Sequence record: OQ845958.1
DNA from: Escherichia phage pEC-M719-6WT.2
Direction: 5' to 3' (one strand)
DNA length: 64,000 bases
Shown: one piece after another, positions 11,750 to 61,815 of the stretch
How positions within the stretch are numbered: the first letter of the stretch is position 1
How the letters are laid out: every line of letters starts with the position of its first letter
Position numbers and translations under genes: made by a program
The notes under the pieces: model-generated
The model's input: only the letters and a program-made list of their open reading frames with translations
Told to the model about the DNA's origin: nothing
Databases searched by the model: none

Positions 11750-11778
11750 AAAAGGGCCACAAGGCCCTTATTCTTTTT
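11748..11778. terminator. Bidirectional hairpin terminator (GGGCC...GGCCC)
   Basis: AAAAAGGGCCacaaGGCCCTTATTCTTTTT between convergent rnlB and the 24 paralog. Confidence 0.7.
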
Positions 11779-17204: not shown

Positions 17205-17212
17205 TATTTATA
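17205..17212 (-). promoter_or_regulatory. Late promoter (TATAAATA) for gene 22
   Basis: Plus-strand TATTTATA 30 nt upstream of the gp22 ATG. Confidence 0.55.
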
Positions 17213-18274: not shown

Positions 18275-18522
18275 TATTCATCGTCCTCATCTTCATCATC
18301 GTCGCCTTCGTCAGCGTCATCAGATTCTTTTTTGTCTTTCTTTTCTGCTTTACCGTCTTCATCATCTTCTTTAGGCTCTTCGCCTTCAATCATGATGGAA
18401 CGTGCAATTTCAATCTTACGTTCTTCAATCAAACTACCGCATACTGGGCCAATGTTTTCAGCAAAATATTTGCGAACGGCTACGAGGTCGTTTGATTTAA
18501 TGGCTTCAAATAAATCATCCAT
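18274..18522 (-). CDS. 67: Prohead core protein gp67
   Basis: 82 aa with highly acidic C-terminal tail; position after gene 20. Confidence 0.8.
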
Positions 18523-47012: not shown

Positions 47013-47702
<690 letters not shown>

Positions 47703-47703
<1 letters not shown>

Positions 47704-47767: not shown

Positions 47768-48100
47768 ATGAACATCAAAACTTACAACGAGTTTTTAGCC
47801 GAATCCGCCATCAATGAGACCAAATCAATTGATGATAGTGAAGGCTCTCTGAAATTTGGTTTAACCAAAAATGCAGATGGTGTTTTCTTTCAGATTGGTA
47901 ATGAACGTTTTCAAACGTCCAAATATTCCAAAGCTGCAGTTGAAGCTGTCCTGAAATCGGGTGGCAAGTGGAAAGGCAAAGAAGGTACTAAAGAAATTGG
48001 TATCGCTGTTGACGGCGGTATGGCTTATTTTAAAATTGGCGATGAACAATTTATTATGTCTGCTCGCGGACGTAAAGAACTGGCAAAACTTTATAAATAA
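47768..48100 (+). CDS. Internal-protein-like small protein with CTS-like N-terminus (MNIKTYNEFLAE), ipI position
   Basis: 110 aa, GGAG RBS, N-terminus resembles the T4 capsid targeting sequence, internal duplicated motif. Confidence 0.6.
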   Translation: MNIKTYNEFLAESAINETKSIDDSEGSLKFGLTKNADGVFFQIGNERFQTSKYSKAAVEAVLKSGGKWKGKEGTKEIGIAVDGGMAYFKIGDEQFIMSARGRKELAKLYK

Positions 48101-48108
48101 GGTTTCTT

Positions 48109-48381
48109 ATGAAAACTTTCAATGAATTTTTCAACGAGTCACAACTGAATGAAGAAGTAAAAATTAGTAAAGCGGTCAAAGCTATGATTGACAATATCAA
48201 TCACTTGTATAGCATTGACTTAACTGACCATATAACAATTGGCAACAAACGCAACTTTTTCGCGTTTGACATTTCAGAACTTGACCAGAACCAAATTAAT
48301 AACATTGAGCGCTTCGCCAATGACAAGGGTCTCCGTCATGAGACAGCTGGTTATAAAAAATACGCAATTTATCTAAAATAG
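48109..48381 (+). CDS. Internal-protein-like small protein (MKTFNEFFNE)
   Basis: 90 aa with CTS-like N-terminus. Confidence 0.55.
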   Translation: MKTFNEFFNESQLNEEVKISKAVKAMIDNINHLYSIDLTDHITIGNKRNFFAFDISELDQNQINNIERFANDKGLRHETAGYKKYAIYLK

Positions 48382-48389
48382 GATTTCAA

Positions 48390-48689
48390 ATGCAAACGCT
48401 CCATGAATTTTTGGTAGAAAACAATTACCTGGCAGAAGCAAAAACCTGGCCTCTGGGCCTTCAGAAGAAAAACACCTACAAATGGGTTGACTTCAAAGGT
48501 AAAGGCGACGCTGAAGACTTTGACCAGCTGCGTAAAAATGGTTATACCTTCCTTGACTCTAATTATAACAAAATTACCTCTTTTAGTCAGAAATCAAGCA
48601 TTGCTTTCATTGAAACTGGTAAGAACACCCCTAAAAATATCACTGACGACTTCGCTGCTTATGGCGTAATTCGTGGTAGTAAGATGTAA
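48390..48689 (+). CDS. Internal-protein-like small protein (MQTLHEFLVE)
   Basis: 99 aa with CTS-like N-terminus; followed by a terminator. Confidence 0.55.
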   Translation: MQTLHEFLVENNYLAEAKTWPLGLQKKNTYKWVDFKGKGDAEDFDQLRKNGYTFLDSNYNKITSFSQKSSIAFIETGKNTPKNITDDFAAYGVIRGSKM

Positions 48690-48696
48690 TTAACAA

Positions 48697-48720
48697 AAGG
48701 GGATAATTATCCTCTTTTTA
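48697..48720 (+). terminator. Rho-independent terminator (GGGGATAA/TTATCCTC + T-run)
   Basis: AAAAGGGGATAATTATCCTCTTTTTA. Confidence 0.6.
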
Positions 48721-48735
48721 TGGCTTGGAGACAAC

Positions 48736-48978
48736 ATGAAAACTTATCAAACATTTATAACAGAATCTTCCCATGGTATGGAAGTTAAACTTGGTCAAGC
48801 CCTTGCTGAAGCAGAGCGCCTGTTTGCACGTATCAAAGAACTTGCTGATTCAGTAGACGCATCATCTTTTAAAGGCGACCAGGGTAAAGTTAAAGCTCTC
48901 CTTGCTCTTTGTTCCGATGCAGGCGAGATTGCTAAGAACGGCACCAAGATGAAAAAACGTCTGGAAGACTTAAAATAA
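48736..48978 (+). CDS. Internal-protein-like small protein (MKTYQTFITE)
   Basis: 80 aa with near-canonical CTS. Confidence 0.6.
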   Translation: MKTYQTFITESSHGMEVKLGQALAEAERLFARIKELADSVDASSFKGDQGKVKALLALCSDAGEIAKNGTKMKKRLEDLK

Positions 48979-48979
48979 A

Positions 48980-49020
48980 GTATACGCGATGGGATAACTG
49001 CAGTATAATTATCTCATCAA
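48980..49020 (+). promoter_or_regulatory. Early promoter / stem-loop cassette (GTATAC-N18-TATAAT within GATAA..TTATC)
   Basis: GTATAC 48980-48985, TATAAT 49004-49009, conserved leader TCAACTACTGGAGA. Confidence 0.5.
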
Positions 49021-49034
49021 CTACTGGAGACAAC

Positions 49035-49289
49035 ATGAAAACTTATCAAGAATTTATTAACGAAGCCGCAGATGCAAAAGTTGAGTTTGCTTATGTTGGT
49101 TCCCCGCGTGGTAGTTTTTCTAATGAGGAATTGCGCCGTTCACTAGACAACTTCATGCAGTTAAGTGCTGAAGTATCGCATGATGGTCGCTATGACATCG
49201 TTACCATTAAAGGTTCTGAAGACCTTATCAAAAAGTGGCACAAGCAGAAAGATGTTGAGATGCGTTACTATCGTATCCCTAAAAAATAA
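49035..49289 (+). CDS. Internal-protein-like small protein (MKTYQEFINE)
   Basis: 84 aa with canonical CTS-like N-terminus. Confidence 0.6.
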   Translation: MKTYQEFINEAADAKVEFAYVGSPRGSFSNEELRRSLDNFMQLSAEVSHDGRYDIVTIKGSEDLIKKWHKQKDVEMRYYRIPKK

Positions 49290-49325
49290 GTGTACTTTTG
49301 AATGGGATAGCGTATAATTATCCCA
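49290..49325 (+). promoter_or_regulatory. Early promoter / stem-loop cassette (GTGTAC-N17-TATAAT within GGGATA..TATCCC)
   Basis: GTGTAC 49290-49295, TATAAT 49313-49318, stem GGGATA 49304-49309 / TATCCC 49320-49325. Confidence 0.55.
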
Positions 49326-49346
49326 TCAACTACTGAGGAGAATAAA

Positions 49347-49532
49347 ATGAAACGTTGCGAATTAATTAGAAATGTTACTGCCCTTGTTGCTGTTACCGCT
49401 TTTGGTTTTAGCATGTTTGCTGGCTTTATGTTGAATATGCTTTCAACTTCTGAGAATATAATCTCTTTAGTAGTTGCATTTTTAATTGGTTCAATCTCTT
49501 TCGTTATGGATAAAATCTCCAAAGGTGAGTAA
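49347..49532 (+). CDS. Small hydrophobic (2-TM) protein
   Basis: 61 aa with GAGGAG RBS; two hydrophobic segments. Confidence 0.5.
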   Translation: MKRCELIRNVTALVAVTAFGFSMFAGFMLNMLSTSENIISLVVAFLIGSISFVMDKISKGE

Positions 49533-49533
49533 A

Positions 49534-49923
49534 ATGTATAAAGTGTATGCGGATTATCAGGCAAATCCATCTGAAAAACCAGATTGCCAAATTGGGTGGG
49601 CGTATGACACCCTGCTTGAAGCAGTAGATAAAGCCCAGGAATTAGGGTATAGTTATGTGGATATTGTCCAACCCAATGGAACAGTTATTACTCTTGAAGA
49701 ATTCAAGAATATCAAAACAAACTTTTTGCTCTTTGCTGGTGATAGCTATTATCCTCGTGGCGGTTATGCTGACTTAATCGCAAAGGCTGCGACTGAAGAT
49801 GAACTGCGCGATATCATTAAAGAAAACGAGAATAAGCCTTGTTATGGTTCCAATCGCTTTGACTGGTGGCAGATTGTCAATGCCAATACACATACTATTG
49901 TTGATGAAGGCACATGCGAATGA
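49534..49923 (+). CDS. Hypothetical protein
   Basis: Track ORF 49486-49923; start moved to ATG 49534 (MYKVYADYQ) after the stop of the upstream ORF. Confidence 0.5.
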   Translation: MYKVYADYQANPSEKPDCQIGWAYDTLLEAVDKAQELGYSYVDIVQPNGTVITLEEFKNIKTNFLLFAGDSYYPRGGYADLIAKAATEDELRDIIKENENKPCYGSNRFDWWQIVNANTHTIVDEGTCE

Positions 49924-50396
49924 ATATCAAATTTGGTCAGACCATCCCTAAAGGTTACGCGATTGAAATTGAAACCTGGGAAAATGATGGTGATAATTAT
50001 AAAACCCAGACTGTATTTGGTGTAGAAGAGCAAGAAATCCAACAGTATAAATATATCCTGGAACTTTTCCATGGTTCGCATTGCAACAACCCAGATAAAT
50101 GCGGTAATTCAAAATGGGATGTGGTTAAACACTTGGTTATCGCCCACATTGCATCTGGCGTAAAATCTGGTCAGTTAACCCATGAATTTTTAAGTAAGGT
50201 TCTGGGTGTAGAAGATTTAGAAGCCTTGTTGAATGACGATGAAGAAGCATACTACTTGAATGAAGCCCTTACTGAGCTCCTTGGTATGGCTTGCGAATAT
50301 GATGGCGATTTCATGCGTGTAATTTCTTATGTTAAGCTATATATAATCGAAGAAGAAATCAAAATCCCATCCGTTAAAGCGCTTGATATGCTTTAA
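49920..50396 (+). CDS. Hypothetical protein
   Basis: About 158 aa with ATGA overlap with the upstream ORF. Confidence 0.5.
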   Translation: MNIKFGQTIPKGYAIEIETWENDGDNYKTQTVFGVEEQEIQQYKYILELFHGSHCNNPDKCGNSKWDVVKHLVIAHIASGVKSGQLTHEFLSKVLGVEDLEALLNDDEEAYYLNEALTELLGMACEYDGDFMRVISYVKLYIIEEEIKIPSVKALDML

Positions 50397-50516
50397 TAAA
50401 AACGCGTTATTATTAATAAGTACCCTCTATTACCAAAGGTTCTTCCCTCAAAGAACCTTTCATAATAGCATGTGCTATTAATCAAACTTACTTTACTTAA
50501 TTTTACTTGAGGTGTT

Positions 50517-50786
50517 ATGTTAGTATTAAAATTAGCTTTTTATGACCCTAAAACAAAGACAACCACTACCAAACGTTGCTCTATTTCGTATGAGTGTCAA
50601 TTTGGCGAAATTCAGCATCCAACAGGCGAAACCTTTATGTCAATTGGTTGTTCAACATTTAATAAAGTCAAATTAATCCCGTTGGTTAACGCGGCAGCTT
50701 ATCTGGTTGCACCAGAAGAAATGACTTATCATACAATTCAGCATATGGTTAAAGATGATAATGCTCCCGCTGGATTTGTAATTTAA
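50517..50786 (+). CDS. Hypothetical protein
   Basis: 89 aa with GAGGTG RBS; ends 5 nt before the tRNA. Confidence 0.5.
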   Translation: MLVLKLAFYDPKTKTTTTKRCSISYECQFGEIQHPTGETFMSIGCSTFNKVKLIPLVNAAAYLVAPEEMTYHTIQHMVKDDNAPAGFVI

Positions 50787-50791
50787 TTTTA

Positions 50792-50867
50792 GGCCCTGTA
50801 GCTCAATTGGTTAGAGCATCCGGCTCATAACTGGCAGGTTTCCGGTTCAAGTCCGGATGGGGCCACC
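50792..50867 (+). tRNA. tRNA with anticodon CAT (Met, or Ile2 by analogy with the T4 AUA-reading tRNA-Ile)
   Basis: Manual fold: acceptor GGCCCTG/TGGGGCC, D-arm GCTC..GAGC, anticodon loop CTCATAA, T-arm TCCGG TTCAAGT CCGGA; one anticodon-stem mismatch. Confidence 0.8.
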
Positions 50868-50944
50868 CGGGGTGTAGCTCAATTGTATAGAGCAACGGTC
50901 TTCTAAACCGTAGGTTGTGGGTTAGAATCCCACCACCCCGACCA
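50868..50944 (+). tRNA. tRNA-Arg (anticodon TCT)
   Basis: Manual fold: acceptor CGGGGTG/CACCCCG, anticodon stem ACGGT/ACCGT, loop CTTCTAA, T-arm GTGGG TTAGAAT CCCAC, encoded CCA. Confidence 0.85.
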
Positions 50945-50959
50945 ATTACCGAGGATATT

Positions 50960-51199
50960 ATGGTTATTAGTGAATCATATGCAGTTATGGATATAACCAA
51001 CAACGAGCTGGTTTATAGCTTTGATGAGTTTGATGAAAATGATAAACAAGTCCCATGGTTTGCATTAACTGCTCCACCTGAGCATAATAAATATCTAAGT
51101 TTCCCGACTCGCAGATTAGCAACAAATTTTATGGAATTCAATGACCTTGATTCCAATTACAAGGTTGTTAAAGTCAAATTAGCTATTACAATTGAATGA
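50960..51199 (+). CDS. Hypothetical acidic protein
   Basis: Track ORF starts inside the tRNA; start moved to ATG 50960 with GAGGA RBS. Confidence 0.5.
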   Translation: MVISESYAVMDITNNELVYSFDEFDENDKQVPWFALTAPPEHNKYLSFPTRRLATNFMEFNDLDSNYKVVKVKLAITIE

Positions 51200-51432
51200 G
51201 AAACCGGGTCGCTACCGGTAAGTCGTCGGACTGAAGTTCCCTGGAGTATAGTTCCTCCCACAGTTTTACTGTGTTCTGGTTCTTTACTATCACAGCTGAA
51301 ACGGCGCACCCTTTTAACGGAGTTTTTCCAGAGCGGACGGTGCGTCCGGTAGTATGAGAAATCCGAGCGGATGGTGCATCCGGTACTATGGAATATAAAT
51401 ATTAACAACAACCCTAATAATGGAAAAACAAA
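51200..51432 (+). ncRNA. Candidate structured small RNA locus next to the tRNAs
   Basis: 233 nt with no ORF; several hairpins including two tandem hairpins with compensatory substitutions; T4 carries small stable RNAs in its tRNA region. Confidence 0.3.
51331..51390 (+). repeat. Tandem 26-nt hairpin repeat (two copies, period 34) with covarying stem
   Basis: gagCGGACGgtgCGTCCGgtagtatg / gagCGGATGgtgCATCCGgtactatg. Confidence 0.7.
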
Positions 51433-51816
51433 ATGCTTACATATGCAGAATTTTTAAATCGCAATACCATCACCGAATCCATACTGACTGAAGCTGGTAA
51501 ATTTTCTTTAGTGGCTCCAGAAAAAGCCGGTGTTTCAATTGGTGACCGTGTTATGTTCAAGAAACCAGTTAATGGTGTTTCTTGGGGTATCGTAACTGGG
51601 TTTGGCATCAAAGCTAAAGACGTTAAAAATGCCGCGGCACCAGGTGCCAAACTGGCCGGTTCTAAAGTTTCAACTTATATGGTTCGCCCTAAACAGTCTC
51701 CAGGTAATGGTGCTGCTGACTGGGTTGGCGCTCCAATCGAAATCGCTCGTGATAAATTCTTGAACATCACCGACCGTGCCAACGAACGCGCTGCAATGGC
51801 ATTCGCTCGCGGATAA
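51433..51816 (+). CDS. Hypothetical protein with weak CTS-like N-terminus (MLTYAEFLN)
   Basis: 127 aa; followed by a hairpin terminator. Confidence 0.5.
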   Translation: MLTYAEFLNRNTITESILTEAGKFSLVAPEKAGVSIGDRVMFKKPVNGVSWGIVTGFGIKAKDVKNAAAPGAKLAGSKVSTYMVRPKQSPGNGAADWVGAPIEIARDKFLNITDRANERAAMAFARG

Positions 51817-51852
51817 GAACACTTGCCTTGCAGGTGGAACCCCGACAAGGTA

Positions 51853-51884
51853 TAGCCCCTTCCGAAAGGTTGGGGCTTTTTTAT
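51853..51884 (+). terminator. Rho-independent terminator
   Basis: AGCCCCttccgaaaggttGGGGCTTTTTT. Confidence 0.65.
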
Positions 51885-51905
51885 AAATCAACTAAAGAGA
51901 AACGT

Positions 51906-52460
51906 ATGAAACTGTTAAAATATTTGAGTTGGATTCTGTTAGTTCCGCTGGATTTTATCTCCATGATTCTGGCCGTTATCCTGGCTCCATTTGTAGTTCC
52001 GTTCCATAATAAAAAGACTGGTAAACTTCCGTTCGGGTTTGATTGGATGATGACTTATGATAATCCGATTGATGGTGACCGGGGTCATGTCAAACGTTGG
52101 TCAAAAATCCGAAAATGGCCATTAGGTGTTTACTTCCAACGAGTAGCCTGGCTCTGGCGAAACAAAGCATACAATTTTGCTTACCACAAGCTCGGTCGTG
52201 ATTGCAATTCAGAATTCCATTATAAAGGTAATCCTGATGTTGAATCCGGCTCCCCAGACAAAGCTCACCATGGCTGGCTCTGGATGTGGAATGATAATGC
52301 ATGGGGTGTGTTCGCTTCCGTACCTTATCTTAAAGTTGGTGGAATCACCTTTTATCTGCGCGTGTATTGCGGTTGGAAGCTCAAGAGTCTTCTGTCCCGA
52401 CCAATCCCTAAGGCTATGCTCGCCTTTCATATAAATCCGTTCCGCTTTTATAAGAACTAA
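51906..52460 (+). CDS. Hypothetical Trp-rich protein with N-terminal transmembrane anchor
   Basis: Start moved to ATG 51906 (MKLLKYLSWILLVPL) with RBS; hydrophobic N-terminus; terminator follows. Confidence 0.55.
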   Translation: MKLLKYLSWILLVPLDFISMILAVILAPFVVPFHNKKTGKLPFGFDWMMTYDNPIDGDRGHVKRWSKIRKWPLGVYFQRVAWLWRNKAYNFAYHKLGRDCNSEFHYKGNPDVESGSPDKAHHGWLWMWNDNAWGVFASVPYLKVGGITFYLRVYCGWKLKSLLSRPIPKAMLAFHINPFRFYKN

Positions 52461-52461
52461 C

Positions 52462-52484
52462 AGCCCGCATTGCGGGCTTTTTTA
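52462..52484 (+). terminator. Rho-independent terminator
   Basis: AGCCCGCattGCGGGCTTTTTT. Confidence 0.7.
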
Positions 52485-52520
52485 TACCCCGAATAAATTT
52501 GAAATTTTCTTCAAAAAGTA

Positions 52521-52575
52521 GTGTACATCCGAATTGACTGGATGCATAATGATTCCATACTGAGTTACACACTGA
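52521..52575 (+). promoter_or_regulatory. Early promoter cassette (GTGTAC-N18-CATAAT) with conserved leader CCATACTGAGTTA
   Basis: GTGTAC 52521-52526, CATAAT 52545-52550. Confidence 0.5.
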
Positions 52576-52601
52576 ATCAAACAAAACTTTGGAGAAATAA
52601 A

Positions 52602-53027
52602 ATGAACTTCCTGACCCTGACTTCTGCATTCTCTGTTACCCGCATCACTAACAAAATGGTTGCCGACGAAGTATGTGAAATCTGCATTCGTGAAGATGCA
52701 CTTATTCATCTGACTTCAACCCAGATTGTTGCCATCGCTAAGTCCCTTAATTCTGAACTGAAGGTAAACACCAAACAGTCAAAAGAATCTATCATTGAAT
52801 TAATCCAAGCTGAAATGATTGAATTCCCAATTGAAGAAGTTAAAGAAGAAAAAATCCAGTCCAAATCTGGTAATGCTCGTGACATTTGCTTCCAGGCATT
52901 TGCAGAAATTGATATGGCAGATGGTGCAGCTCGCCGCGCCCTGATTGATGTTCTGGTTAACACCCATGATATCAAAAAGACTGTTGTTCAGTCATATGCT
53001 TCCAACTTCCGCAAAGCTCAAAAATAA
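52602..53027 (+). CDS. Hypothetical protein, paralog of the 53111 ORF (shared C-terminal domain)
   Basis: Start moved to ATG 52602; C-terminus GAARRALIDVLV...VVQSYASNFRK shared with the next gene. Confidence 0.55.
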   Translation: MNFLTLTSAFSVTRITNKMVADEVCEICIREDALIHLTSTQIVAIAKSLNSELKVNTKQSKESIIELIQAEMIEFPIEEVKEEKIQSKSGNARDICFQAFAEIDMADGAARRALIDVLVNTHDIKKTVVQSYASNFRKAQK

Positions 53028-53038
53028 TTGAGAAAAGT

Positions 53039-53075
53039 GTTTTACTTCCAGGTGGGATAGTGTATAATTATCCCA
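53039..53075 (+). promoter_or_regulatory. Early promoter / stem-loop cassette (TTTTAC-N17-TATAAT within GGGATA..TATCCC)
   Basis: TATAAT 53063-53068, stem GGGATA 53054-53059 / TATCCC 53070-53075, then leader CATACTGAGTTACCAAATAAA. Confidence 0.55.
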
Positions 53076-53110
53076 TACTGAGTTACCAAATAAACAAACG
53101 GGATAATAAA

Positions 53111-53554
53111 ATGAAAACTTCAAAACTGGTTAAGTACGTTAAGCTGGCATTAAACAACTCTTCTGAAGCTGAAGCACAATCCGCAGCACGTATGTTCTTC
53201 AAACGTCTGGCAGCTGAAGGTATTTCATTTAACCCGGCAGTATTTGGTATCACTCGTGGCGAAGCTGCTAAACTGGCAACTCTGGCAGGTAAAATTTTTA
53301 AAGGTCTGAATGATGGACAGGTTAAACCAGAAGTTAAACCTACTCCTAAAGCTGAACCAAAAGCTGAACGTAAGGCACCTAAACGCTCCGGTATGAGCAA
53401 CAAAGATTTATGCTATGATATGTTCAAAACTGTTAATATGTCTAATGGTGCTGCTCGCAGAGCTGTTATTGATATGATTGTGCGTGAGTTTGGATTCAAC
53501 AAAGCATCAGTTCAGTCTTATGCTTCCAACTTCCGCAAAGAATTTGAAATTTAA
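53111..53554 (+). CDS. Hypothetical protein, paralog of the 52602 ORF
   Basis: Start moved to ATG 53111; C-terminus GAARRAVIDMIV...SVQSYASNFRK; Lys/Pro/Glu-rich linker. Confidence 0.55.
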   Translation: MKTSKLVKYVKLALNNSSEAEAQSAARMFFKRLAAEGISFNPAVFGITRGEAAKLATLAGKIFKGLNDGQVKPEVKPTPKAEPKAERKAPKRSGMSNKDLCYDMFKTVNMSNGAARRAVIDMIVREFGFNKASVQSYASNFRKEFEI

Positions 53555-53560
53555 TTCAAA

Positions 53561-53596
53561 AAGGGGGTATACAAGCCCCCTGCTTTAAGGCATAAT
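53561..53596 (+). promoter_or_regulatory. Hairpin plus early promoter (GTATAC-N18-CATAAT), -35 inside a GGGGG/CCCCC stem-loop
   Basis: GGGGG 53563-53567 / CCCCC 53576-53580; CATAAT 53591-53596; leader CCATACTGAGTTACCAAATAAAAC. Confidence 0.5.
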
Positions 53597-53637
53597 GATT
53601 CCATACTGAGTTACCAAATAAAACACTGGAGAATAAA

Positions 53638-53943
53638 ATGAAATTCATCATCAACCTGGCGCTTGTTGACTTTGATAAAACTGGTAATTTCGCATCTGCT
53701 GAAAATATGATTCGTAACACCAAGTTTAAAGTGCAAGTCCAACAGGCGGTAGCAAAAGAGTTCTTTACTGATAAATTAACTAACGTTGTTAATCACCTGA
53801 ATGTGCAAGTTAAATTCACTCGTGAAGCGGAAACTACTGTTGCATTTGATTTTGACTGCCAATACCATGATGAATATGTTCGCCGCATCCTGGATATTGT
53901 GTCTGATGAACTTTACTATGGTGTGCAGGAAAACAAAATCTAA
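53638..53943 (+). CDS. Hypothetical protein
   Basis: 101 aa with GGAG RBS. Confidence 0.55.
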   Translation: MKFIINLALVDFDKTGNFASAENMIRNTKFKVQVQQAVAKEFFTDKLTNVVNHLNVQVKFTREAETTVAFDFDCQYHDEYVRRILDIVSDELYYGVQENKI

Positions 53944-54015
53944 ATTAGTGCTTTAATGGGAACATGATAGTATGTTCCCTGGATAATAAAACATTAACCA
54001 ACTGAAGGAAATACC

Positions 54016-54609
54016 ATGAATACTTTAAAGAAACTTGTTGAATTCATCCGCTCCAAACTGGGGACTGCAATGGCAAAAAACCTGTCTATTGAAGACCAAT
54101 ATACTCAAGCGGCGTCTACCCTGATTGACAAGATTACTGAGCTCCAGACCGCCCACGTTAAGTCTGTTAATGAAGAAAAACGCATCCGCGAGTTAGCGAA
54201 TGAAAAAGACCAACTCGCCGCCTCAAAAGAGCGTGAAATCCGCAAACTGATTGCTGATGGTGCGGATGTCCAGGTCCATGCTAAACTGGGTCTCCTGTAT
54301 CGTCGCACTGCTAAACAACTTCGTAAGAAGGCAGACGATTATGTTGAAATGCGTAATGAAATTAAATTGAAAGTTAAAGAGCTGGATGATTCTCGTCAGG
54401 AACTAGCTGTTAAACTGGAATACATCCGCGAAACCCGTAAGGTATCTGCCCTGGGTATTGCGACTGCAGATGATGTTGTTGAAATCGCTGCATTGACTAA
54501 GATTGATATTGAAGACACCTTGATGCGTGTTGAAACCTTCAAAGGTCCACAGGTTGGTGTGGATACCACGTCCGCTGACATTGAAGAATACATCAATTCA
54601 CTTAAGTAA
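54016..54609 (+). CDS. Hypothetical coiled-coil protein
   Basis: 197 aa, heptad-like charged repeats throughout; hairpin terminator follows. Confidence 0.55.
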
Positions 54610-54651
54610 GATAAAGGGGGCAAAGCCCCCTAATTGGGAGAGGAGAAAATT

Positions 54652-55206
54652 ATGACTTTATATGATAATCTTTTATCAAATGTGGAATGGTTTGGCGGTA
54701 GTGGTCTTGCCACTGAAACTAACACAGTTCTTTATAGAATCCGCCGCGACTTGGGCTATTCCAATGATTTCTTAAGAAGAACAACAAGTCGCGGCGATAC
54801 TACCAAATTGCCTTTTATTTTTGCTTTAGCTGAAGACCTTTCTTTCGCAGATGCCTTGGAAATTATTGATGTAAATCTGGGTATTCAACGAGTGGAATTC
54901 GCTGGACTACGTTATTCAGTATATGCTTTAAACGAACCAAGTGATTATAAACAGCTTACTAATGCGGACGATGATGACCATTTGGTATGTTATTTGATGT
55001 TAGAAAATGGTGACCACTTTGGAATGGTTGACCGCCGTCCAGCTTATACTGATATTAAAAATTATGATAAAGATGAGCTTCTTGATTTGGCGGCTGAGTA
55101 TACATTAGAGGGTCGTAAACGGAAACGTAAGCTTAATCGTTTTATTGCTGAATGTCGTGAATATGCTAAAGGGGTTCAAAATGCGAACGTTATATCTGCC
55201 AAGTAA
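54652..55206 (+). CDS. Hypothetical protein ending in FIAECREY (C-terminal motif family)
   Basis: Start set to ATG 54652 after GAGAGGAG RBS. Confidence 0.5.
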   Translation: MTLYDNLLSNVEWFGGSGLATETNTVLYRIRRDLGYSNDFLRRTTSRGDTTKLPFIFALAEDLSFADALEIIDVNLGIQRVEFAGLRYSVYALNEPSDYKQLTNADDDDHLVCYLMLENGDHFGMVDRRPAYTDIKNYDKDELLDLAAEYTLEGRKRKRKLNRFIAECREYAKGVQNANVISAK

Positions 55207-55540
55207 ACCAGAAAAATTTGTATACGCAGACAAGATTGATAAAGACCTTATGCCAGCATTTGGGGCTCTGTCCATATGCATCGTTGGGGTTATAATGGTG
55301 GTGCTTTGTGGGGATATGGATATCATTAGTGTTGGAGTTGCCTGGGCGCTAATAATCGCAGCTCCTTTTATTACGGTCCTGAGTATGATATTGATAAATG
55401 TGTGGCATCAAAATCATATGAATAAAGGATATCGTGGGCGAGTTAAAGAGTGGGAACAAAAATGTATTTCCCTACAAGAAGAGCACAAAATTAAATGTGC
55501 CGAAGAATTTATTAAGGAGGTTCGTAATGGAACGGCCTAG
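55181..55540 (+). CDS. Small membrane protein (2 TM), C-terminal EEFIKEVRNG
   Basis: Start set to ATG 55181 after AAAGGGG; two hydrophobic helices. Confidence 0.5.
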   Translation: MRTLYLPSKPEKFVYADKIDKDLMPAFGALSICIVGVIMVVLCGDMDIISVGVAWALIIAAPFITVLSMILINVWHQNHMNKGYRGRVKEWEQKCISLQEEHKIKCAEEFIKEVRNGTA

Positions 55541-55880
55541 TCTTACATCACATGTTTATCAATTGGCTGAATATGATATTGGTGCCAATTTATTATTAGG
55601 GATTGCCACCGGTATGCTTGGTGGTTTGGTTGGTCTGGTAATGACCACGGTTATGGCTGCAATCGAGGGAGTCATGCCTATTGAGATGGGCTTCTTTATG
55701 ATAATCGCTCCGGCTGTTGTGGCTTATTTTATCCCTGTTGTGTATGATATCTGTCACACAAATGCCTTGAATGCTCCTAGTCGGAAGAGATACGCTTCAG
55801 CAATGGCTGAGTATAATAAGTTCCTAGACAAAACAAAACGTAATGACCTTGAAACCTTTATTAAGGAATGTAAATCATGA
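55527..55880 (+). CDS. Small membrane protein (2-3 TM), C-terminal ETFIKECKS
   Basis: Start set to ATG 55527, whose RBS AAGGAGG is encoded by the C-terminal codons of the upstream gene. Confidence 0.5.
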   Translation: MERPSLTSHVYQLAEYDIGANLLLGIATGMLGGLVGLVMTTVMAAIEGVMPIEMGFFMIIAPAVVAYFIPVVYDICHTNALNAPSRKRYASAMAEYNKFLDKTKRNDLETFIKECKS

Positions 55881-56167
55881 ATAAAATTGAAATTGCTATC
55901 CCCAAGTATTATGATGAGAAATCTGCAGAAAAAGCTATCTATTCTCTTCTAAATAAGACCTCTGAAATTGAAAAACACTGTGAAGAAATCGCAGATGAAT
56001 ATGGTATCCAATTCGGTACCGGTGATTATGGTTCAGGCCGTACATATTATCCTGTCGGTTATGAGTGCTCCCAGTGGTTTAAAGATGAAATTGAAAACAA
56101 CGGCGGCGAAGTTGAAAACGGTGTCGTTACAGTTGGTGCTTGGGTCTCCTCTTCGGCAATGTGCTAA
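55877..56167 (+). CDS. Small protein, WVSSSxxC-tail family member A
   Basis: 96 aa ending WVSSSAMC; ATGA overlap with the upstream gene. Confidence 0.55.
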   Translation: MNKIEIAIPKYYDEKSAEKAIYSLLNKTSEIEKHCEEIADEYGIQFGTGDYGSGRTYYPVGYECSQWFKDEIENNGGEVENGVVTVGAWVSSSAMC

Positions 56168-56176
56168 GGAAACGCT

Positions 56177-56458
56177 ATGATGAATGATTACCGTAAAAAT
56201 AAAGAACTGGCTAACGCAGTAAATGATATCCATAAAGCTATTCGTCGTGCCGAGGAAATTGCAAACAAATATGAGACTCATTTTAATATATACCCTGCTC
56301 GCGGTATGGGCGGTGACTATTATTCTCCTGGTGCCTTGAAAGCTGACCTTGCCCATTGGGAAGAACATGGCCATCCTGAATGGGCTATTGTTAACACTCA
56401 TGACTATACAACTGACCTGGAAAATGGCGGATGGGTGTCCTCCTCTTCTGAATGTTAA
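56177..56458 (+). CDS. Small protein, WVSSSxxC-tail family member B
   Basis: 93 aa ending WVSSSSEC; shares GDY..G and ENGG motifs with member A. Confidence 0.55.
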   Translation: MMNDYRKNKELANAVNDIHKAIRRAEEIANKYETHFNIYPARGMGGDYYSPGALKADLAHWEEHGHPEWAIVNTHDYTTDLENGGWVSSSSEC

Positions 56459-56466
56459 GGAATTAT

Positions 56467-56664
56467 ATGTCTCGTGAATTAGATTGTGCAATCCGTACTG
56501 CCGCGGCAGCTATTGAAAACGTTATCCAGATTTGTAAAGAAGAACGCGAAGAAGCTGATATCTACATTGATGGTGTTCGTGACCTAGAACGACATATTAC
56601 GCTTTATAATGGTTGTATTACAATTAGTGGTACCTCTTGGGTGTCCTCCTCTTACGAATGCTAA
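56467..56664 (+). CDS. Small protein, WVSSSxxC-tail family member C
   Basis: About 65 aa ending WVSSSYEC; start set to ATG 56467 after TAAGGAA. Confidence 0.5.
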   Translation: MSRELDCAIRTAAAAIENVIQICKEEREEADIYIDGVRDLERHITLYNGCITISGTSWVSSSYEC

Positions 56665-56674
56665 GGAATAAAAA

Positions 56675-56899
56675 ATGACTGATATTAACGAATTAGAAAA
56701 AGCTGCTCTTGAACTGGCTGCCCTGTATAAGAAAGTAAAAGATATGGCTTCTGCTCAGGATTTTGGTGTTGAGCTAGATGATTATGACGGTGAAGTTCGT
56801 CTTGAAGATTGGCTGAATAGCTCTTGTTACGGCGAAGAAGCTGGTCGCACCTTCGTTGCCCGCGCCGACGGTAAAATCTGGTACCCGAGCTCATGCTAA
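56675..56899 (+). CDS. Small protein, divergent tail-family member D (ends WYPSSC)
   Basis: 74 aa ending IWYPSSC. Confidence 0.5.
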   Translation: MTDINELEKAALELAALYKKVKDMASAQDFGVELDDYDGEVRLEDWLNSSCYGEEAGRTFVARADGKIWYPSSC

Positions 56900-57120
56900 A
56901 ATTAAAGAAAAGATACATTAGTAAAATAAATGGTCTTCGCGATTATGCCAAAGGTTGGCCATTAAGTATTATTATGGCTGATAGACATCCACGTTATAAT
57001 AACGAGTTGACTTATTACAAAAAGTATGATTCATATTGTCGGTCTAAAGCGGGTCGTTTAGATGGTTCCTATGAAGAATATTTCGGTAAAAAACCTACTC
57101 GTATTTCGTTAGGAAAATAA
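56893..57120 (+). CDS. Hypothetical small basic protein
   Basis: 75 aa overlapping the previous stop; weak RBS. Confidence 0.4.
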   Translation: MLKLKKRYISKINGLRDYAKGWPLSIIMADRHPRYNNELTYYKKYDSYCRSKAGRLDGSYEEYFGKKPTRISLGK

Positions 57121-57222
57121 TTTAATCACAAGGATGTGATAAGAAAATTATGTACAAGATTTAGTATACAAGTCTAAAGAAACGTAGTATCATTATCTTT
57201 GTCAACTAATGAGGAAAATATT

Positions 57223-58182
57223 ATGATGTTAGTTATTGGTTCTCGTGCATTACATAACGCTGGTCTGATTGAAAGTCAGAAAATTGAAAACTCTGATTGG
57301 GACTTCATCGCAGACCAAGGTTCCTGGAACAGCTTTAAAACCCAGATGATGGGACAACACGTGCATGTGGATAACCCAGATGTTCAAGCTTTTAAATGTA
57401 TGCACAATGGTAAAGAAACCTATTTTGAAGCGTACATCGTCCGCGCACTGACAAGTGTTCGTGAATTGACTGATGAGTTACAAGAGGAAGATTTTACCTC
57501 CAGTTATCGTCTGCTCAAATATGCGAAGGCAAATATTCAGAAAGACCGTCTATCTGGTTTTTACTGGGCAACTCCTGATATTTGTCTGGCAATTAAATTG
57601 TCTCATCGTTACCTGAAGAACAATCCATTCTTCCTGAAGACCATGAGTCATATTAATTACCTTCGCAATAAGGGTGTTGTTCTTAATGACGAACTGCAGA
57701 AAATCATGCTGCAACGCCAGGCAGAAACATTGTCGTATAGTCACCCTAAACTAGACGTGGGCAAGAAAACTTTCTTTAATGATACAATCTATACCCTTGA
57801 CCATGACTCCATCCACGAGGCCGTGGCGCTTGCTGATAAGCCTGCATATAAGTTCTATATGAAGGATGATTCAGAAGTCATGACCTCGCGTGAAAAATTT
57901 GAAGCACTCCCTGAGATTATTAAACTGGCAGGGGTTTATGAAGAAGCATGTGTGCTCGCTCTGGAGCGTTCGCAGGTTCCTAATGAGTTCAATATCTCTC
58001 CATCTGTGAGCTTCCATATTGCGCTAGAAAAAGTCTGTACCTCCATTACTTCTGGATGGTTCCGTGAGTACGCCTGGGAACATTACCAGGAAGTGGTTAA
58101 TATGTACAACACCCTGGGCCGCGAAGACTATGTTAAACGTTTCAAGGCTAACCAACATTTAATTCGTCCTTTCGAAAAATAA
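57223..58182 (+). CDS. Hypothetical protein with possible nucleotidyltransferase-fold motif
   Basis: Start set to ATG 57223 after GAGGA RBS; N-terminal IGSRAL-x17-SDWDFI resembles the hG[GS]...D.D NTase signature. Confidence 0.55.
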   Translation: MMLVIGSRALHNAGLIESQKIENSDWDFIADQGSWNSFKTQMMGQHVHVDNPDVQAFKCMHNGKETYFEAYIVRALTSVRELTDELQEEDFTSSYRLLKYAKANIQKDRLSGFYWATPDICLAIKLSHRYLKNNPFFLKTMSHINYLRNKGVVLNDELQKIMLQRQAETLSYSHPKLDVGKKTFFNDTIYTLDHDSIHEAVALADKPAYKFYMKDDSEVMTSREKFEALPEIIKLAGVYEEACVLALERSQVPNEFNISPSVSFHIALEKVCTSITSGWFREYAWEHYQEVVNMYNTLGREDYVKRFKANQHLIRPFEK

Positions 58183-58241
58183 GTGTGTACAACAAAGTAG
58201 GACTATGACACAATGGTCCCACAATCAATGAGGAAAATATT

Positions 58242-58928
58242 ATGAACGGTCCGAAAACTTTTAATAGTCAAGCTCGTGCAGTTGGTGGTTTTGCACATAA
58301 CGTACAAAATGACCAAATCAAAAATGAACCAATGTTCTTTAACTGTGATTTGAGTTTTGCTTGGGATAATGGTGGCCCAATCACTCGTAGCTTTATTGCC
58401 AATCTCCCAATTGATTGGACTAATCAACATGTTGTATTTGATTCCCGGGTTCATATGCTGATGCCTGGTTGGTATCCCGCTATCCCAGGTTATCACCATG
58501 ATGATGTGCCACGTCCGGATATTCCGGTGGGTCAACACTTTATTACTGCAGGCCAACCTGATTATGATAATCCTCGATACTATTCTGAACATATTCTTGG
58601 TCTTGTTAACGCTGATGTGTGTCCTACTTATTTTGCAACCGGAACTGCACAATTTAGTCAGATTCCTGAAGGCGAACTTATCTATCGTCAGTGGCATAAA
58701 GAAGTTCTGGAAAAAATTGAGTCCAATGAATTAACCAAGTGGGATGCTCCTGACCGCACATTGCTCCAGTTTGATTGGCAGACATGGCATACAGGTTCTC
58801 GCGCAGTAAGTAACGGGTGGCGCTGGTTTGGTCGTGTGTCTCGTAATACTGACCGTGTTAAAAAGATTACAAATGAAATCCGCGTTAATGCTCAAGTATA
58901 TCTGGAATTCCCTATGGAGGGCTGGTAA
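58242..58928 (+). CDS. Hypothetical Trp/His-rich protein
   Basis: 228 aa with GAGGA RBS; no recognisable motif. Confidence 0.55.
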   Translation: MNGPKTFNSQARAVGGFAHNVQNDQIKNEPMFFNCDLSFAWDNGGPITRSFIANLPIDWTNQHVVFDSRVHMLMPGWYPAIPGYHHDDVPRPDIPVGQHFITAGQPDYDNPRYYSEHILGLVNADVCPTYFATGTAQFSQIPEGELIYRQWHKEVLEKIESNELTKWDAPDRTLLQFDWQTWHTGSRAVSNGWRWFGRVSRNTDRVKKITNEIRVNAQVYLEFPMEGW

Positions 58929-59515
58929 TGGCCCTTTATGAGCCTGGGTGCATGGGTGTTGATGTAAACTTCATCCGCCGGGCAGAAAATGCAGGTATAA
59001 TTGTATCAAGAGACGAATTTATGATTACCAAAAAATATTGGGCGAACCTTGATGATGGTGATGAAGGAATCAAGGTGGAAAATGTTGATTGGTCGCGATG
59101 CAATCGTCATGTGAAAGAGCTTTTAATTAAGGAATATAAAATGGGATACATCATTAATGGGCATCAACCAGAACCGCTCAAAGAACAGACACCCGACCCA
59201 TTAATTTCTTATAGCAAGAAATATGGATTTCGTACCTGGAGTGATGAATTTGATAAGTTAATTTGTTCCAGGTTTTATGCCTGGGCTGGAATCTTATTTT
59301 TACCATTCCTGTGGTTTTTCTTGACAGGCAAAAATGAAGCACCCGTGGCTGTAATGGGTGCGTGCTTTTCTACTGCTCTCGCTGGGCTTATTGCATCATT
59401 TTTATGGACTATGGTTATTGAAGTACCTTTTCGTATTTCTAAAGTTAAAAAGGTATATGACGATATCACTAAGAAAAATACATTGAACTCCTTTATTGAG
59501 GAATGCCGTAAATGA
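58928..59515 (+). CDS. Membrane protein (C-terminal 2 TM), C-terminal NSFIEECRK
   Basis: 195 aa; hydrophobic helices near C-terminus; ATGA-type overlap. Confidence 0.55.
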   Translation: MALYEPGCMGVDVNFIRRAENAGIIVSRDEFMITKKYWANLDDGDEGIKVENVDWSRCNRHVKELLIKEYKMGYIINGHQPEPLKEQTPDPLISYSKKYGFRTWSDEFDKLICSRFYAWAGILFLPFLWFFLTGKNEAPVAVMGACFSTALAGLIASFLWTMVIEVPFRISKVKKVYDDITKKNTLNSFIEECRK

Positions 59516-59748
59516 GTATTGCAATTTATATTAAATCCGAGTCATGTGATTCTTATCTGTATTCCTATGATACAGGTACATCAGAAGAGAAAATCAAAGA
59601 TGATTTAGAAAGTGACTTGGATATGTTCCGCCCGATTTCTGAATACAGAATTCAAACTTCTGATAGTGAATCTCCTTCATTGGAAAATAGACTTGAATTT
59701 TTAATGAGTGATATTTTTAACCAATCATGGAAACGTGACGATGAGTAA
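59512..59748 (+). CDS. Hypothetical acidic small protein
   Basis: 78 aa; overlapping junctions on both sides. Confidence 0.5.
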   Translation: MSIAIYIKSESCDSYLYSYDTGTSEEKIKDDLESDLDMFRPISEYRIQTSDSESPSLENRLEFLMSDIFNQSWKRDDE

Positions 59749-60199
59749 GAAAAACGCAGTGAAAGAATTATCTGCTGGTATTATTTTCATGACTGAAGAT
59801 AAAGAGTTATTCATGGGACGTGTGACTGGTTCTCGTAAACCAGGCATGCCTGCGCACAAATGGGACATTCCTAAGGGTCATGTTGAAGCATGTGAATCCC
59901 CGATTGAAGCGGCTATCCGTGAAACCGAAGAAGAAACCGGGTTTACCCAATACGACCCGGCATTCTTAAAGGACCTGGGTGAATTCCGCTATTCAGATAA
60001 CAAAAATCTTCACCTGTTTTTGTACACGGTTCCGGTCGAGCATGAACAGTTTAGACATAGTAAATGCTCTGCCTATCATACCTTCCCGGATGGTAGTTCG
60101 GTTCCAGAGTTCGATGCATTTGCTCTGATTAAACCGAGTCAATGGCAGTATGTGATGGGCAAATCGATGTACAAGGTAATGACTCAAATTTTCGGATAA
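59741..60199 (+). CDS. nudE: Nudix hydrolase NudE
   Basis: Nudix box (GHVEACESPIEAAIRETEEETG); position immediately upstream of e as T4 e.1; start set to ATG 59741. Confidence 0.85.
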   Translation: MSKKNAVKELSAGIIFMTEDKELFMGRVTGSRKPGMPAHKWDIPKGHVEACESPIEAAIRETEEETGFTQYDPAFLKDLGEFRYSDNKNLHLFLYTVPVEHEQFRHSKCSAYHTFPDGSSVPEFDAFALIKPSQWQYVMGKSMYKVMTQIFG

Positions 60200-60225
60200 T
60201 AAATACCCCTATATAAGGGGGTATT

Positions 60226-60717
60226 ATGAATATATTCGAAATGTTACGCATAGATGAAGGTTGTAAGTTGGATTTGTATAAAGATACTGAAGGCTATTGG
60301 ACCATTGGTATCGGGCAACTGATAACTAAGAACCCATCAAAAGATGTTGCTCGTGCCGAGCTCGACAAGCTCATGGGTCGCGTCTGTAATGGTCGCATAA
60401 CCCAGCACGAAGCTGAAACATTGTTTAACCGTTCGGTCGAAAAAGCTAAAGCCGGAATCTTGAGACATCCTGTCTTAAAACCTGTTTATGATGTACTTGA
60501 TGAAGTTCGTCGTTGTGCACTCATTAATATGGTATTCCAAATGGGTGTTGCTGGTGTTGCTGGTTTTCCTAAGGGTATGCGATTGCTGAAGGCTAAATCA
60601 TGGGAAGCGGCTGCTAAGGAACTGGCGGACTCAAGATGGTATAAAGTCCAGACTCCGAACCGAGCCAAACGAGTTATAGAAACGTTCCGCACCGGAACTT
60701 TTGACGCATACAAATAA
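60226..60717 (+). CDS. e: Endolysin (T4 lysozyme family)
   Basis: 163 aa; near-identical to T4 lysozyme ([56 protein letters not shown]). Confidence 0.97.
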
Positions 60718-60725
60718 GGTAAAAT

Positions 60726-60995
60726 ATGAAAACGTATCAAGAATTTTTGGCTGAATCTGTATTAAATGAATCAGATGAAAGCCGCATGGCATTTTTAGCT
60801 AAGAAAGAAGGCTTTGAGTTTACTTCTATTAAAAAAGTTAATGGAACTTCATTTAAAGTTGGTGATTGGACCTTTGGCAACAAAGGAAATGGTCAGTGGC
60901 AAATTGTAGATAAATCTGGCAAAGAAGTGGATTATTTGTTTAATCAGAAATTGGGTGATATCGCTAAACTTATGGGTCAATACTCTAAGAAATGA
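60726..60995 (+). CDS. Internal protein (ipIII position), CTS MKTYQEFLAE
   Basis: 89 aa with canonical CTS-like N-terminus, directly after e. Confidence 0.65.
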   Translation: MKTYQEFLAESVLNESDESRMAFLAKKEGFEFTSIKKVNGTSFKVGDWTFGNKGNGQWQIVDKSGKEVDYLFNQKLGDIAKLMGQYSKK

Positions 60996-61032
60996 TGTAC
61001 ATCTCCAAATGATAGGGTTATAATGACCCTAT
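60995..61032 (+). promoter_or_regulatory. Early promoter / stem-loop cassette (ATGTAC-N18-TATAAT within GATAGGGT..ACCCTATC)
   Basis: TATAAT 61019-61024 in the loop of inverted repeat 61011-61018/61025-61032; leader CAACTACGGAGAA. Confidence 0.5.
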
Positions 61033-61050
61033 CAACTACGGAGAACAAAC

Positions 61051-61467
61051 ATGACTCGCATTAACTTAACCCTGGTGTCTGAACTCGCTGACCAACATCT
61101 TATGGCTGAATATCGTGAGCTTCCTCGCGTGTTTGGTGCTGTTCGTAAGCATGTACAAAATGGTAAAAAGGTTTCTGACTTTAAAATCCCATCATCTTTT
61201 CTTTTAGGGACTGGTCATGTCACCTTCTTTTATGATAAGCTTTTGTTCCTTAAAAACCGGCATCAAGAACTTATTGCAGAATGTTTAAAGCGAGGGTTTA
61301 ACATAAAAGATATTTCTACCCAAGACTTAACTGATATTCCTGATGAATGGAAGAATGATTATCAACCATCAATCTGGTCAATTGAAATCAGTCAAGCCAG
61401 ACTGAATGAGAAAATTTCTCAAAAGCCTGCTTGGTACAAATACTATGGGAAAGCTGTGTACGCTTAA
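61051..61467 (+). CDS. denV: Endonuclease V (pyrimidine dimer DNA glycosylase)
   Basis: 138 aa; near-identical to T4 DenV ([35 protein letters not shown]). Confidence 0.97.
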
Positions 61468-61515
61468 CTAAAAAGGTTGTATAATGATTTTATCAACCAA
61501 ACAATGGAATATAAA

Positions 61516-61815
61516 ATGAAAACTTATCAAGAATTTATCACAGAAGCCAAAGCCCCTAAAGCATTCCAAATTGGGGTCCAAGGTACTTTAGACCAACAAT
61601 ATGTTGATGCTATTGTAGCAAGCCTCGGCAAGCAGGGTGTACAAGTGGATTTGGTTGATTTTACCAAAGGTAATACTTTTAATATTGTTACGTCTAAAGG
61701 CTCTTTAGCTAAAGTTAAAAAGGCTTTTGGTGTAGCACAAGCATACGAAATCGACCATTCTGAATTAGAAAATAAAGGTCGCCAGAACACAATTAAAGGC
61801 TCTGGTTCTTTCTAA
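61516..61815 (+). CDS. Internal-protein-like small protein, CTS MKTYQEFITE
   Basis: Track ORF 61477-61815; start moved to ATG 61516 to expose the CTS. Confidence 0.6.
   Translation: MKTYQEFITEAKAPKAFQIGVQGTLDQQYVDAIVASLGKQGVQVDLVDFTKGNTFNIVTSKGSLAKVKKAFGVAQAYEIDHSELENKGRQNTIKGSGSF

Follow-up and report, generated by a model that had tools for sequence, protein, structure and literature searches.

Which of the small open reading frames (ORFs) of a T4-like phage encode internal proteins (Ip; genes ip), carried in the head behind a short N-terminal capsid targeting sequence (CTS) and ejected with the DNA, and what might such proteins do in the next host cell? The question is raised by a stretch of 64,000 nucleotides (nt) from Escherichia phage pEC-M719-6WT.2 (OQ845958.1), hereafter called the window. 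A sequence-only reading of this DNA had pointed to seven ORFs with strong CTS starts (47768, 48109, 48390, 48736, 49035, 60726 and 61516) and a weaker one at 51433, and had taken them for internal-protein candidates. The coordinates, plus strand and N-termini of all eight were confirmed in the window, and pattern scans recovered the seven strong starts as well as the weaker one. It is probable that the eight ORFs are ip genes in a T4-like phage belonging to the genus Gaprivervirus and work by the mechanism set out below. This reading is supported by synteny, by PHROG assignments and the annotation of relatives, by constraint acting at the peptide level, and by genes for the gp21 protease and the head scaffold within the same window.

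A strict CTS pattern (M.{0,2}[KQLNRS]T[YFLW].[ETDQ]F[ILFVM].[ENDQ]) was run against translations of the whole 64 kb in all six frames. It matched seven times, exactly at the seven strong candidates and always at an ORF start on the plus strand; nothing else was hit in the six frames, and 100 shuffles gave no match. A looser pattern which admits T4 IPI (M.{0,2}[KQLNRSE]T[YFLW].[ETDQ]F, ORFs of at least 40 amino acids (aa)) picked out these eight ORFs and no others in the window, and from 16 kb of T4 sequence only the three genuine ip genes. The earlier count of three such proteins in T4 is borne out. The CTS targeting determinants, an aromatic residue at position 4 and Phe at position 7, fit seven of the ORFs, with the motif of 47768 shifted by +2; 48390 has Leu4. 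Six of the eight carry (I/L)-x-E at positions 8-10, at the sequence level the predicted gp21 site, and several have a second such site within positions 13-16. Variant leaders are MNIKTYNEFLAE, MKTFNEFFNE, MQTLHEFLVE and MLTYAEFLNRNTITE. In AlphaFold2 (AF2) models of two of the second-site proteins the leader forms a short helix, and the predicted cut site falls in a linker of low confidence behind it.

Is the common start a peptide signal or a nucleic acid signal? The sequence-only reading had allowed for a conserved translation-initiation module, which would make the shared start an RNA-level element of the messenger RNA (mRNA) and the products ordinary cytoplasmic early or late proteins. Runs of identical start nucleotides speak for it, namely 23 nt common to 49035 and 61516 and GGAGACAACATGAAAACTTATCAA common to 48736 and 49035. 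However, among 39 distinct CTS genes from eight phages, Thr3 is invariant and yet written with all four codons (ACT, ACA, ACG and ACC), and 36 of the 39 have Ile or Leu at position 8, by way of six codons; Phe7 is likewise invariant and Glu10 is present in 35. The regions around the upstream ribosome-binding sites differ among the ip genes, and 47768 has retained its motif although it is displaced by two codons. Furthermore, positions 4 and 7 of the T4 CTS are needed for targeting and positions 8 and 10 for processing, and the 10-residue T4 peptide by itself sends foreign proteins into the head (PMC9026906). Because the conserved residues are encoded by many synonymous codons, the module was rejected as an explanation and is to be regarded as extremely improbable.

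The codon differences of the eight ORFs from relatives are almost all synonymous, with synonymous to nonsynonymous ratios of 9:1 (51433), 14:1 (48109), 18:1 (61516) and 11:1 (47768), which marks the eight, as judged from sequence, as functional coding genes under purifying selection. Six of them (48109, 48390, 48736, 49035, 60726 and 61516) fall into PHROG families named internal head or virion protein; 47768 belongs to phrog_3966 (unknown function) and 51433 to no family. Pfam searches with all eight gave sub-threshold noise only. The claim that the bodies behind the leaders are unrelated to each other holds at the BLAST level, where the best body-only pair has an E value of 0.07 and the proteins form eight clusters. 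It is less secure at the profile level: hhalign relates the 47768 and 60726 families at 93% (E 3e-7) over a stretch that takes in the shared leader. A remote common origin of these two families is therefore possible, with the leader contributing to the score and the AF2 topologies differing.

A total of 716 phage records matched the window, the best being ECML-359 (97.9%) and EAWsc9 (97.5%), both of the genus Gaprivervirus (Straboviridae, Tevenvirinae), and the complete genome of TH55 aligns in collinear blocks at 90-99% identity. Taken overall, identity to these three phages is 95-99%. By these sequence matches the source of the window is a T4-like coliphage of the VR5/VR7/SP18 group and no new virus.

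Five of the genes stand in tandem between 47768 and 49289, as had been described, with spacers of 8, 8, 46 and 56 nt. They sit between 57B and trna.4/trna.3, the place of the single ipI in T4. The left landmark is 57B (47248..47703, plus strand; Pfam Acb1, E 1e-59), in synteny with the T4 order 57B-ipI-trna.4. The first gene of the array, 47768 (47768..48100, plus strand; 110 aa), has the leader MN-IKTYNEFLAE/SAINE/, in which slashes mark predicted cuts, and belongs to the VR7 gp156/phrog_3966 family; public records label it 'hypothetical' or 'profilin'. Its distant homologues in Edwardsiella phage PEi20, Salmonella phage STP4-a and metagenomic contigs start with the canonical MKTYxEFLTE. Within Gaprivervirus the former start codon now reads ATC, ATA or GTC, and a new ATG two codons 5' of it, after GGAG, serves in its place. 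Since the distant homologues open with a canonical CTS and the start codon was shifted later, the sequences mark the 47768 family as a probable Ip family overlooked in public records. A start still farther upstream, as annotated in SP18 and CJ20, was ruled out for the window by a stop codon which closes that frame. The predicted structure is a tandem beta4-alpha repeat fold as in Whirly, PUR and MRP-like binders of single-stranded nucleic acid, and if injected the product would be a Whirly-like protein that probably binds nucleic acid.

The four genes that follow, all on the plus strand, have closer counterparts among annotated Ips. The second, 48109 (48109..48381; 90 aa, MKTFNEFFNE/SQLNE/), is an Ip9 orthologue (phrog_7673 'internal head protein', E 2e-57) whose counterpart is annotated as ip9 in ECML-359 and VR25; its body is 76% identical to that of a Mosigvirus homologue with canonical I-S-E. 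Next comes 48390 (48390..48689; 99 aa, MQTLHEFLVE/NNYLAE/), a member of the VR7 gp154 family (phrog_2667, E 3e-20), which shares 98% identity with VR25 gp289, a product labelled 'internal head protein', and is a 32-36% paralogue of the Ip found 3' of denV in VR25, SP18 and CJ20. The fourth, 48736 (48736..48978; 80 aa, MKTYQTFITE/SSHGMEV...), is an Ip5 orthologue (phrog_3499, E 2e-41), named ip5 in ECML-359. The last, 49035 (49035..49289; 84 aa, MKTYQEFINE/AADAK...), is Ip6-like (phrog_8111 'internal virion protein', E 2e-15), with 46-47% identity to VR25 ip6 and a T6 homologue; in ECML-359 and EAWsc9 its counterpart is unannotated or 'hypothetical'. A terminator-like hairpin with a U run lies between the 48390 and 48736 genes (48695..48718, plus strand; -10.1 kcal/mol, z -2.4), which is weak evidence for a terminator. 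It may be added that 57B encodes Acb1, a phosphodiesterase acting against CBASS (cyclic oligonucleotide-based antiphage signalling system), so that a known anti-defence gene stands directly 5' of the candidate effectors.

The second locus is marked by the lysozyme gene e (60226-60717) and by denV (61051-61467), both on the plus strand and landmarks of the ipIII/ipII locus. Here 60726 and 61516 flank denV just 3' of e, as the counterpart of the T4 order e-ipIII-ipII-denV. The former (60726..60995, plus strand; 89 aa, MKTYQEFLAE/SVLNE/), between e and denV, belongs to phrog_8765 'internal virion protein' (E 5e-37), and its CTS is kept in 11 homologues. Its AF2 model (predicted local distance difference test (pLDDT) score 81) has an alpha-beta5-alpha arrangement, and structural comparison of this model gave no specific match and none to IPI*. 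The latter (61516..61815, plus strand; 99 aa, MKTYQEFITE/AKAPK...), 3' of denV, is an Ip7 orthologue (phrog_2667, E 2e-42) with 95% identity to VR25 ip7, 99% to JS98 orf112 and SP18 gp122, and 47.5% over the full length to a Mosigvirus homologue.

The apparatus on which such leaders would act is encoded in the same window on the minus strand. It comprises the gp21 prohead core serine protease (17208..17846; Pfam Peptidase_S77, E 6e-102), which is the enzyme expected to remove the leader, and the major scaffold core protein gp22 (16357..17175; Pfam T4_CASP, E 3e-91), part of the core to which CTS proteins are targeted. The prohead core proteins gp68 and gp67 (17846..18522) lie beside them, gp67 recognised by Pfam GP67 (E 6e-20) and gp68 by its position between gp67 and gp21 only. 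Perfect matches to the T4-type late promoter TATAAATA number 22 in the window against 5.35 expected. Two on the plus strand precede candidate genes: 48092..48099 ends 9 nt before the start codon of 48109, and 51394..51401 ends 31 nt before that of 51433. The other ip genes may be served by read-through from 46794 or by imperfect late promoter sites. A sigma-70 promoter scan found 53 sites against 42.8 expected and thus nothing above background. As a separate observation, 17 of the 22 perfect late promoters belong to the minus strand, where they are interspersed with structural genes (3571-35059), which fits T4-type late transcription.

In the proposed mechanism each product would be made with an N-terminal CTS of about 10 residues, and this leader would bind the scaffolding core of gp22, gp67 and gp68 during prohead assembly. 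The gp21 protease would then cut after the Glu of (I/L)-x-E, either at position 10 or, in several proteins, at the second site within 13-16. A small and mostly basic mature protein would remain in the head with the DNA and be ejected into the next host cell, where it would most likely neutralise a fast-acting host defence. The ip genes would be gathered in two hot spots, from 57B to trna.4 and in the e/denV region, or in three if the segment following the tRNA genes is counted. Their cassettes would turn over by recombination at the shared leader-coding sequence, so that every phage ends up with a particular mix of unrelated 'payloads', all carried behind one common 'address tag'.

For T4 the targets are known: Ip1, Ip2 and Ip3 each inhibit a different type IV restriction enzyme of the GmrSD kind, and 'at least 10' more Ips have been recognised solely by their signal (PMC12373910). 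T4 needs IPIII on strain ECOR17, and the protein remains active in trans when the CTS is removed. By analogy with T4 the eight products are candidates for injected anti-defence proteins. Their targets may differ from those in T4. The T4 proteins gp42, the deoxycytidine monophosphate (dCMP) hydroxymethylase, and beta-glucosyltransferase gave no tblastn match in the whole genome of TH55, in which the controls uvsX (77%) and imm (52%) were found; in TH55, gene 43 is followed by imm, then by a 176-aa ORF and by uvsX. This suggests that the lineage does not make DNA with hydroxymethylcytosine (hmC). The absence of gp42 is specific to the lineage tested, because gene 42 is listed for JS98-type phages in a paper which does not discuss Ips (Petrov et al. 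2010). If the DNA is not glucosyl-hmC (glc-hmC), the targets are probably other defences. Since the lineage apparently has no hmC pathway and nevertheless keeps eight payloads under purifying selection, CTS delivery may not be tied to glc-hmC-specific type IV restriction and may bring in effectors against other first-line defences; this wider role is put forward tentatively and is unlikely as it stands.

Several points weigh against the eight ORFs being ip genes with the role described. Packaging, cleavage, injection and an anti-defence role are what we infer for these proteins from T4, and the ten other ip genes tested by Silas et al. had no GmrSD partner (PMC12373910). The glc-hmC-specific GmrSD enzymes are unlikely targets here, because TH55 is without homologues of gp42 and beta-glucosyltransferase, an argument that is indirect as it runs through TH55. 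When each body was checked against IPI, IPII and IPIII, none proved an orthologue and only the leaders aligned; for none of the eight was mature-protein homology to IPI*, IPII or IPIII found, and a PDB sequence search with all eight ORFs gave nothing at E < 0.01. Among the leaders, the CTS of 47768 begins two residues later than usual, Phe8 replaces Ile or Leu in 48109 (F-N-E, plus L-N-E at 13-15), and 51433 has Leu2 and Arg10 and is thus without Lys2 and Glu10. No homologue of 51433 was found outside Gaprivervirus among 5.8 billion proteins searched, and a perfect late promoter is close by in only two of the eight genes (48109 and 51433). In the literature searched, nothing relevant was found on virion proteomics of the Ips of VR7, SP18 or JS98.

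For 51433, and possibly 47768, the doubt goes further: such a gene may not encode an internal protein at all, its likeness to the CTS being due to descent or chance and the signal no longer working. This doubt has to be taken seriously, though it is unlikely to hold. The weaker candidate 51433 (51433..51816, plus strand; 127 aa, MLTYAEFLNRNTITE/SILTE/) combines its Leu2 and Arg10 with a position outside both classical ip loci and the lack of any PHROG or Pfam family. Its homologues are confined to 15 near-identical phage records (99% identity), and the search of 5.8 billion proteins gave its own 90% cluster only. However, its N-terminus MLTYAEFLNRNTITESILTE keeps Thr3, Tyr4, Glu6, Phe7 and Leu8, with I-T-E at 13-15 followed by L-T-E at 18-20, a layout that matches T4 IPI and VR25 Ip5. 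The T4 IPI leader MKTFKEFTSTTTPVSTITE has no Glu10 and carries I-T-E at 17-19; its mature form has 76 of 95 residues, so that the cut falls after Glu19. The VR25 Ip5 leader MKTYNEFLTVTTLNE has Val10 and L-N-E at 13-15. Because these two are built in this way, leaders without Glu10 and with a later (I/L)-x-E are an established variant. Moreover, 51433 has its own perfect late promoter, and JS98 carries in the same post-tRNA segment a gene, orf135, with the canonical CTS start MKTYNEFLNESVLNE. As regards 47768, its two extra N-terminal residues and a PHROG without assigned function have to be set against the canonical MKTYxEFLTE with which its homologues in other genera open. On these sequence features 51433 is likely but unproven as an Ip with an IPI-type leader, and the post-tRNA segment is a possible third ip hot spot. 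The gene follows those for tRNA-Met and tRNA-Arg. These two, Met(CAT) and Arg(TCT), are all the tRNA genes that the window has (50792-50944, plus strand), against eight in T4; the CAT tRNA is annotated as tRNA-Ile2 in EAWsc9.

How unusual is a set of eight? The same genomic interval was compared across phages, and CTS ORFs numbered three in T4 and two in T6 (both Tequatrovirus), five each in JS98 (Dhakavirus) and 348Ecol098PP (Mosigvirus), and within Gaprivervirus six in SP18, seven in TH55, eight in CJ20 and eight in the window. VR25, also Gaprivervirus, has eight, seven by pattern and in addition ip9 (MKTFNELFNE). The novelty implied when the set was called an expanded repertoire thus falls away: seven to eight is ordinary for the genus, and the genes are annotated in RefSeq records such as that of VR25, where seven CTS genes are labelled internal head or virion proteins. 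Relatives also carry Ip10. A CTS scan of the whole TH55 genome gave the same set and two matches outside the region of the window, one of which, a 47-aa ORF at 107966, is spurious by appearance. The other is a 55-aa ORF (MT446421.1 75988, minus strand; MKTFKDFINEDMAAGDAGG...KKRKNKDDKPTV; phrog_1823, unknown function) with a CTS-like start, situated in a group of early genes immediately 5' of gene 61, which encodes the primase; it might be a ninth tagged protein, or the resemblance might be due to chance.

The bodies behind the leaders fall into 17 unrelated families among the eight phages compared, and traces of their exchange can be seen. TH55 is without the segment corresponding to 48398-48731 of the window, that is the 48390 body, the hairpin and the next ribosome-binding site, and has the upstream region of 48390 joined straight to the ATG of Ip5 (MT446421.1 129238-129248). 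The junction of this indel lies in ATGCAAAC/ATGAAAAC, precisely where two successive CTS genes have their start codons. T6 Ip5 (21132) and 48736 share the same body (82% identity) behind different leaders, the IPI-type MKTFKEFATKTTITE in T6 versus MKTYQTFITE in the window; both are predicted to be cut at the same point, immediately ahead of SSHGMEV. SP18 retains at 13531-13785 an ip pseudogene, the gapped remains of a 48390 gene with 88% identity. From the TH55 junction, the T6 leader difference and the decayed SP18 copy, the sequences indicate that cassettes are gained and lost and leaders swapped at the shared tag. Leader-mediated recombination is reportedly a proposal made by Repoila and colleagues in 1994. 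The SP18 record carries misc_features 'similar to hypothetical protein' at 13531-13785 and 11618-11791, in the ip and post-tRNA regions.

This turnover bears on whether the proteins, even if packaged by their CTS, serve the head or the DNA instead of acting against host defence, by neutralising charge, condensing the DNA, assisting its packaging or ejection, or protecting its ends. In favour of this, seven of the eight mature proteins are predicted to be basic (isoelectric point 8.8-10) and small (7.5-12 kDa), and T4 internal proteins touch DNA phosphates through lysines at about 1000 per head (PMC3012670). The ten other ip genes without a GmrSD phenotype can be added on the same side. Such a role leaves unexplained the 17 unrelated body families in eight phages, the presence or absence of whole cassettes and the pseudogenised copies; all three T4 Ips have proved to be specific restriction inhibitors, and the T4 ip genes are non-essential. 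A head or DNA role in place of anti-defence is hence improbable, and the candidate anti-defence role remains the preferred one.

The phenomenon as such is known, a hypervariable Ip set having been cited since 1994, and most of the genes are annotated in near-identical GenBank phages; the concept of CTS-tagged Ips was established in earlier work (Rao and Black 2010, PMC3012670; Kuhn and Thomas 2022, PMC9026906; Silas et al. 2025, PMC12373910). The additions made here are modest: the 47768 family and 51433 as Ip candidates so far unannotated, a possible third hot spot, the cassette junction, and the apparent absence of the hmC pathway. What the finding supplies are candidates and not a concept, as element, tag, loci and variability are textbook T4 biology. 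Injected internal proteins are nevertheless the first phage molecules to face host immunity, with targets known only for T4 Ip1-3, and a phage with eight Ips in a possibly cytosine-unmodified lineage offers a ready list of small anti-defence candidates against wild E. coli. Should delivery beyond glc-hmC restriction be true, the notable payloads would be the Whirly-like 47768 and the orphan 51433 with its IPI-type long leader in a third hot spot.

Two further groups of small genes on the plus strand of the window may be recorded. Four small tandem ORFs of 96, 93, 70 and 74 aa occupy 55877-56899 in the variable e.2-e.6 region and have a C-terminal motif in common (WVSSSAMC, WVSSSSEC, WVSSSYEC and WYPSSC). 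Three belong to phrog_899 and one to phrog_4882, both of unassigned function, and by appearance they form a paralogous array. At 52602-53027 and 53111-53554 lie neighbouring paralogues with a common C-terminal domain (...GAARRA.ID..V......K..VQSYASNFRK); their PHROGs (phrog_9997 and phrog_18416) cross-match at E about 1e-15, and the EAWsc9 counterparts are labelled 'rho-N domain' and 'H15 domain' proteins.

Among known systems, the Dar proteins of phage P1 are large and are taken up along an ordered incorporation pathway. Like the candidates described here, they are packaged in the head and co-injected with the DNA to block restriction (PMC12810830; PMC9024508), but they have no short cleavable CTS common to many small unrelated proteins and no sequence relation to the Ips of the window. 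The ejection proteins of giant phages (SPN3US and phiKZ-like) are likewise freed of a propeptide by a gp21-like prohead protease, lie inside the head and enter the cell (PMC5694885; PMC7411985); they differ in being large, in having other propeptides without an MKTYQEF-type tag and in their genome organisation. Far closer are T4 IPI-III, with the same N-terminal CTS (MKTYQEFIAE in IPII and IPIII, MKTFKEF...ITE in IPI), the same two loci, the protease and scaffold genes, and small non-conserved payloads. Unlike T4, the window has eight genes instead of three, bodies that are not homologous to those of IPI-III, one gene on each side of denV and one candidate after the tRNA genes. The finding belongs to the polymorphic Ip set of the T-even phages, for which the names Ip4-Ip13 go back to Repoila et al. 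(1994, EMBO J), as cited in PMC3012670 and PMC12373910. Three members depart from the named set, as 47768 ('hypothetical'), 51433 (no family) and 60726 (PHROG only) have no Ip name or Ip function in public records, whereas 48109 corresponds to Ip9, 48736 to Ip5 and 61516 to Ip7, and 49035 is Ip6-like.

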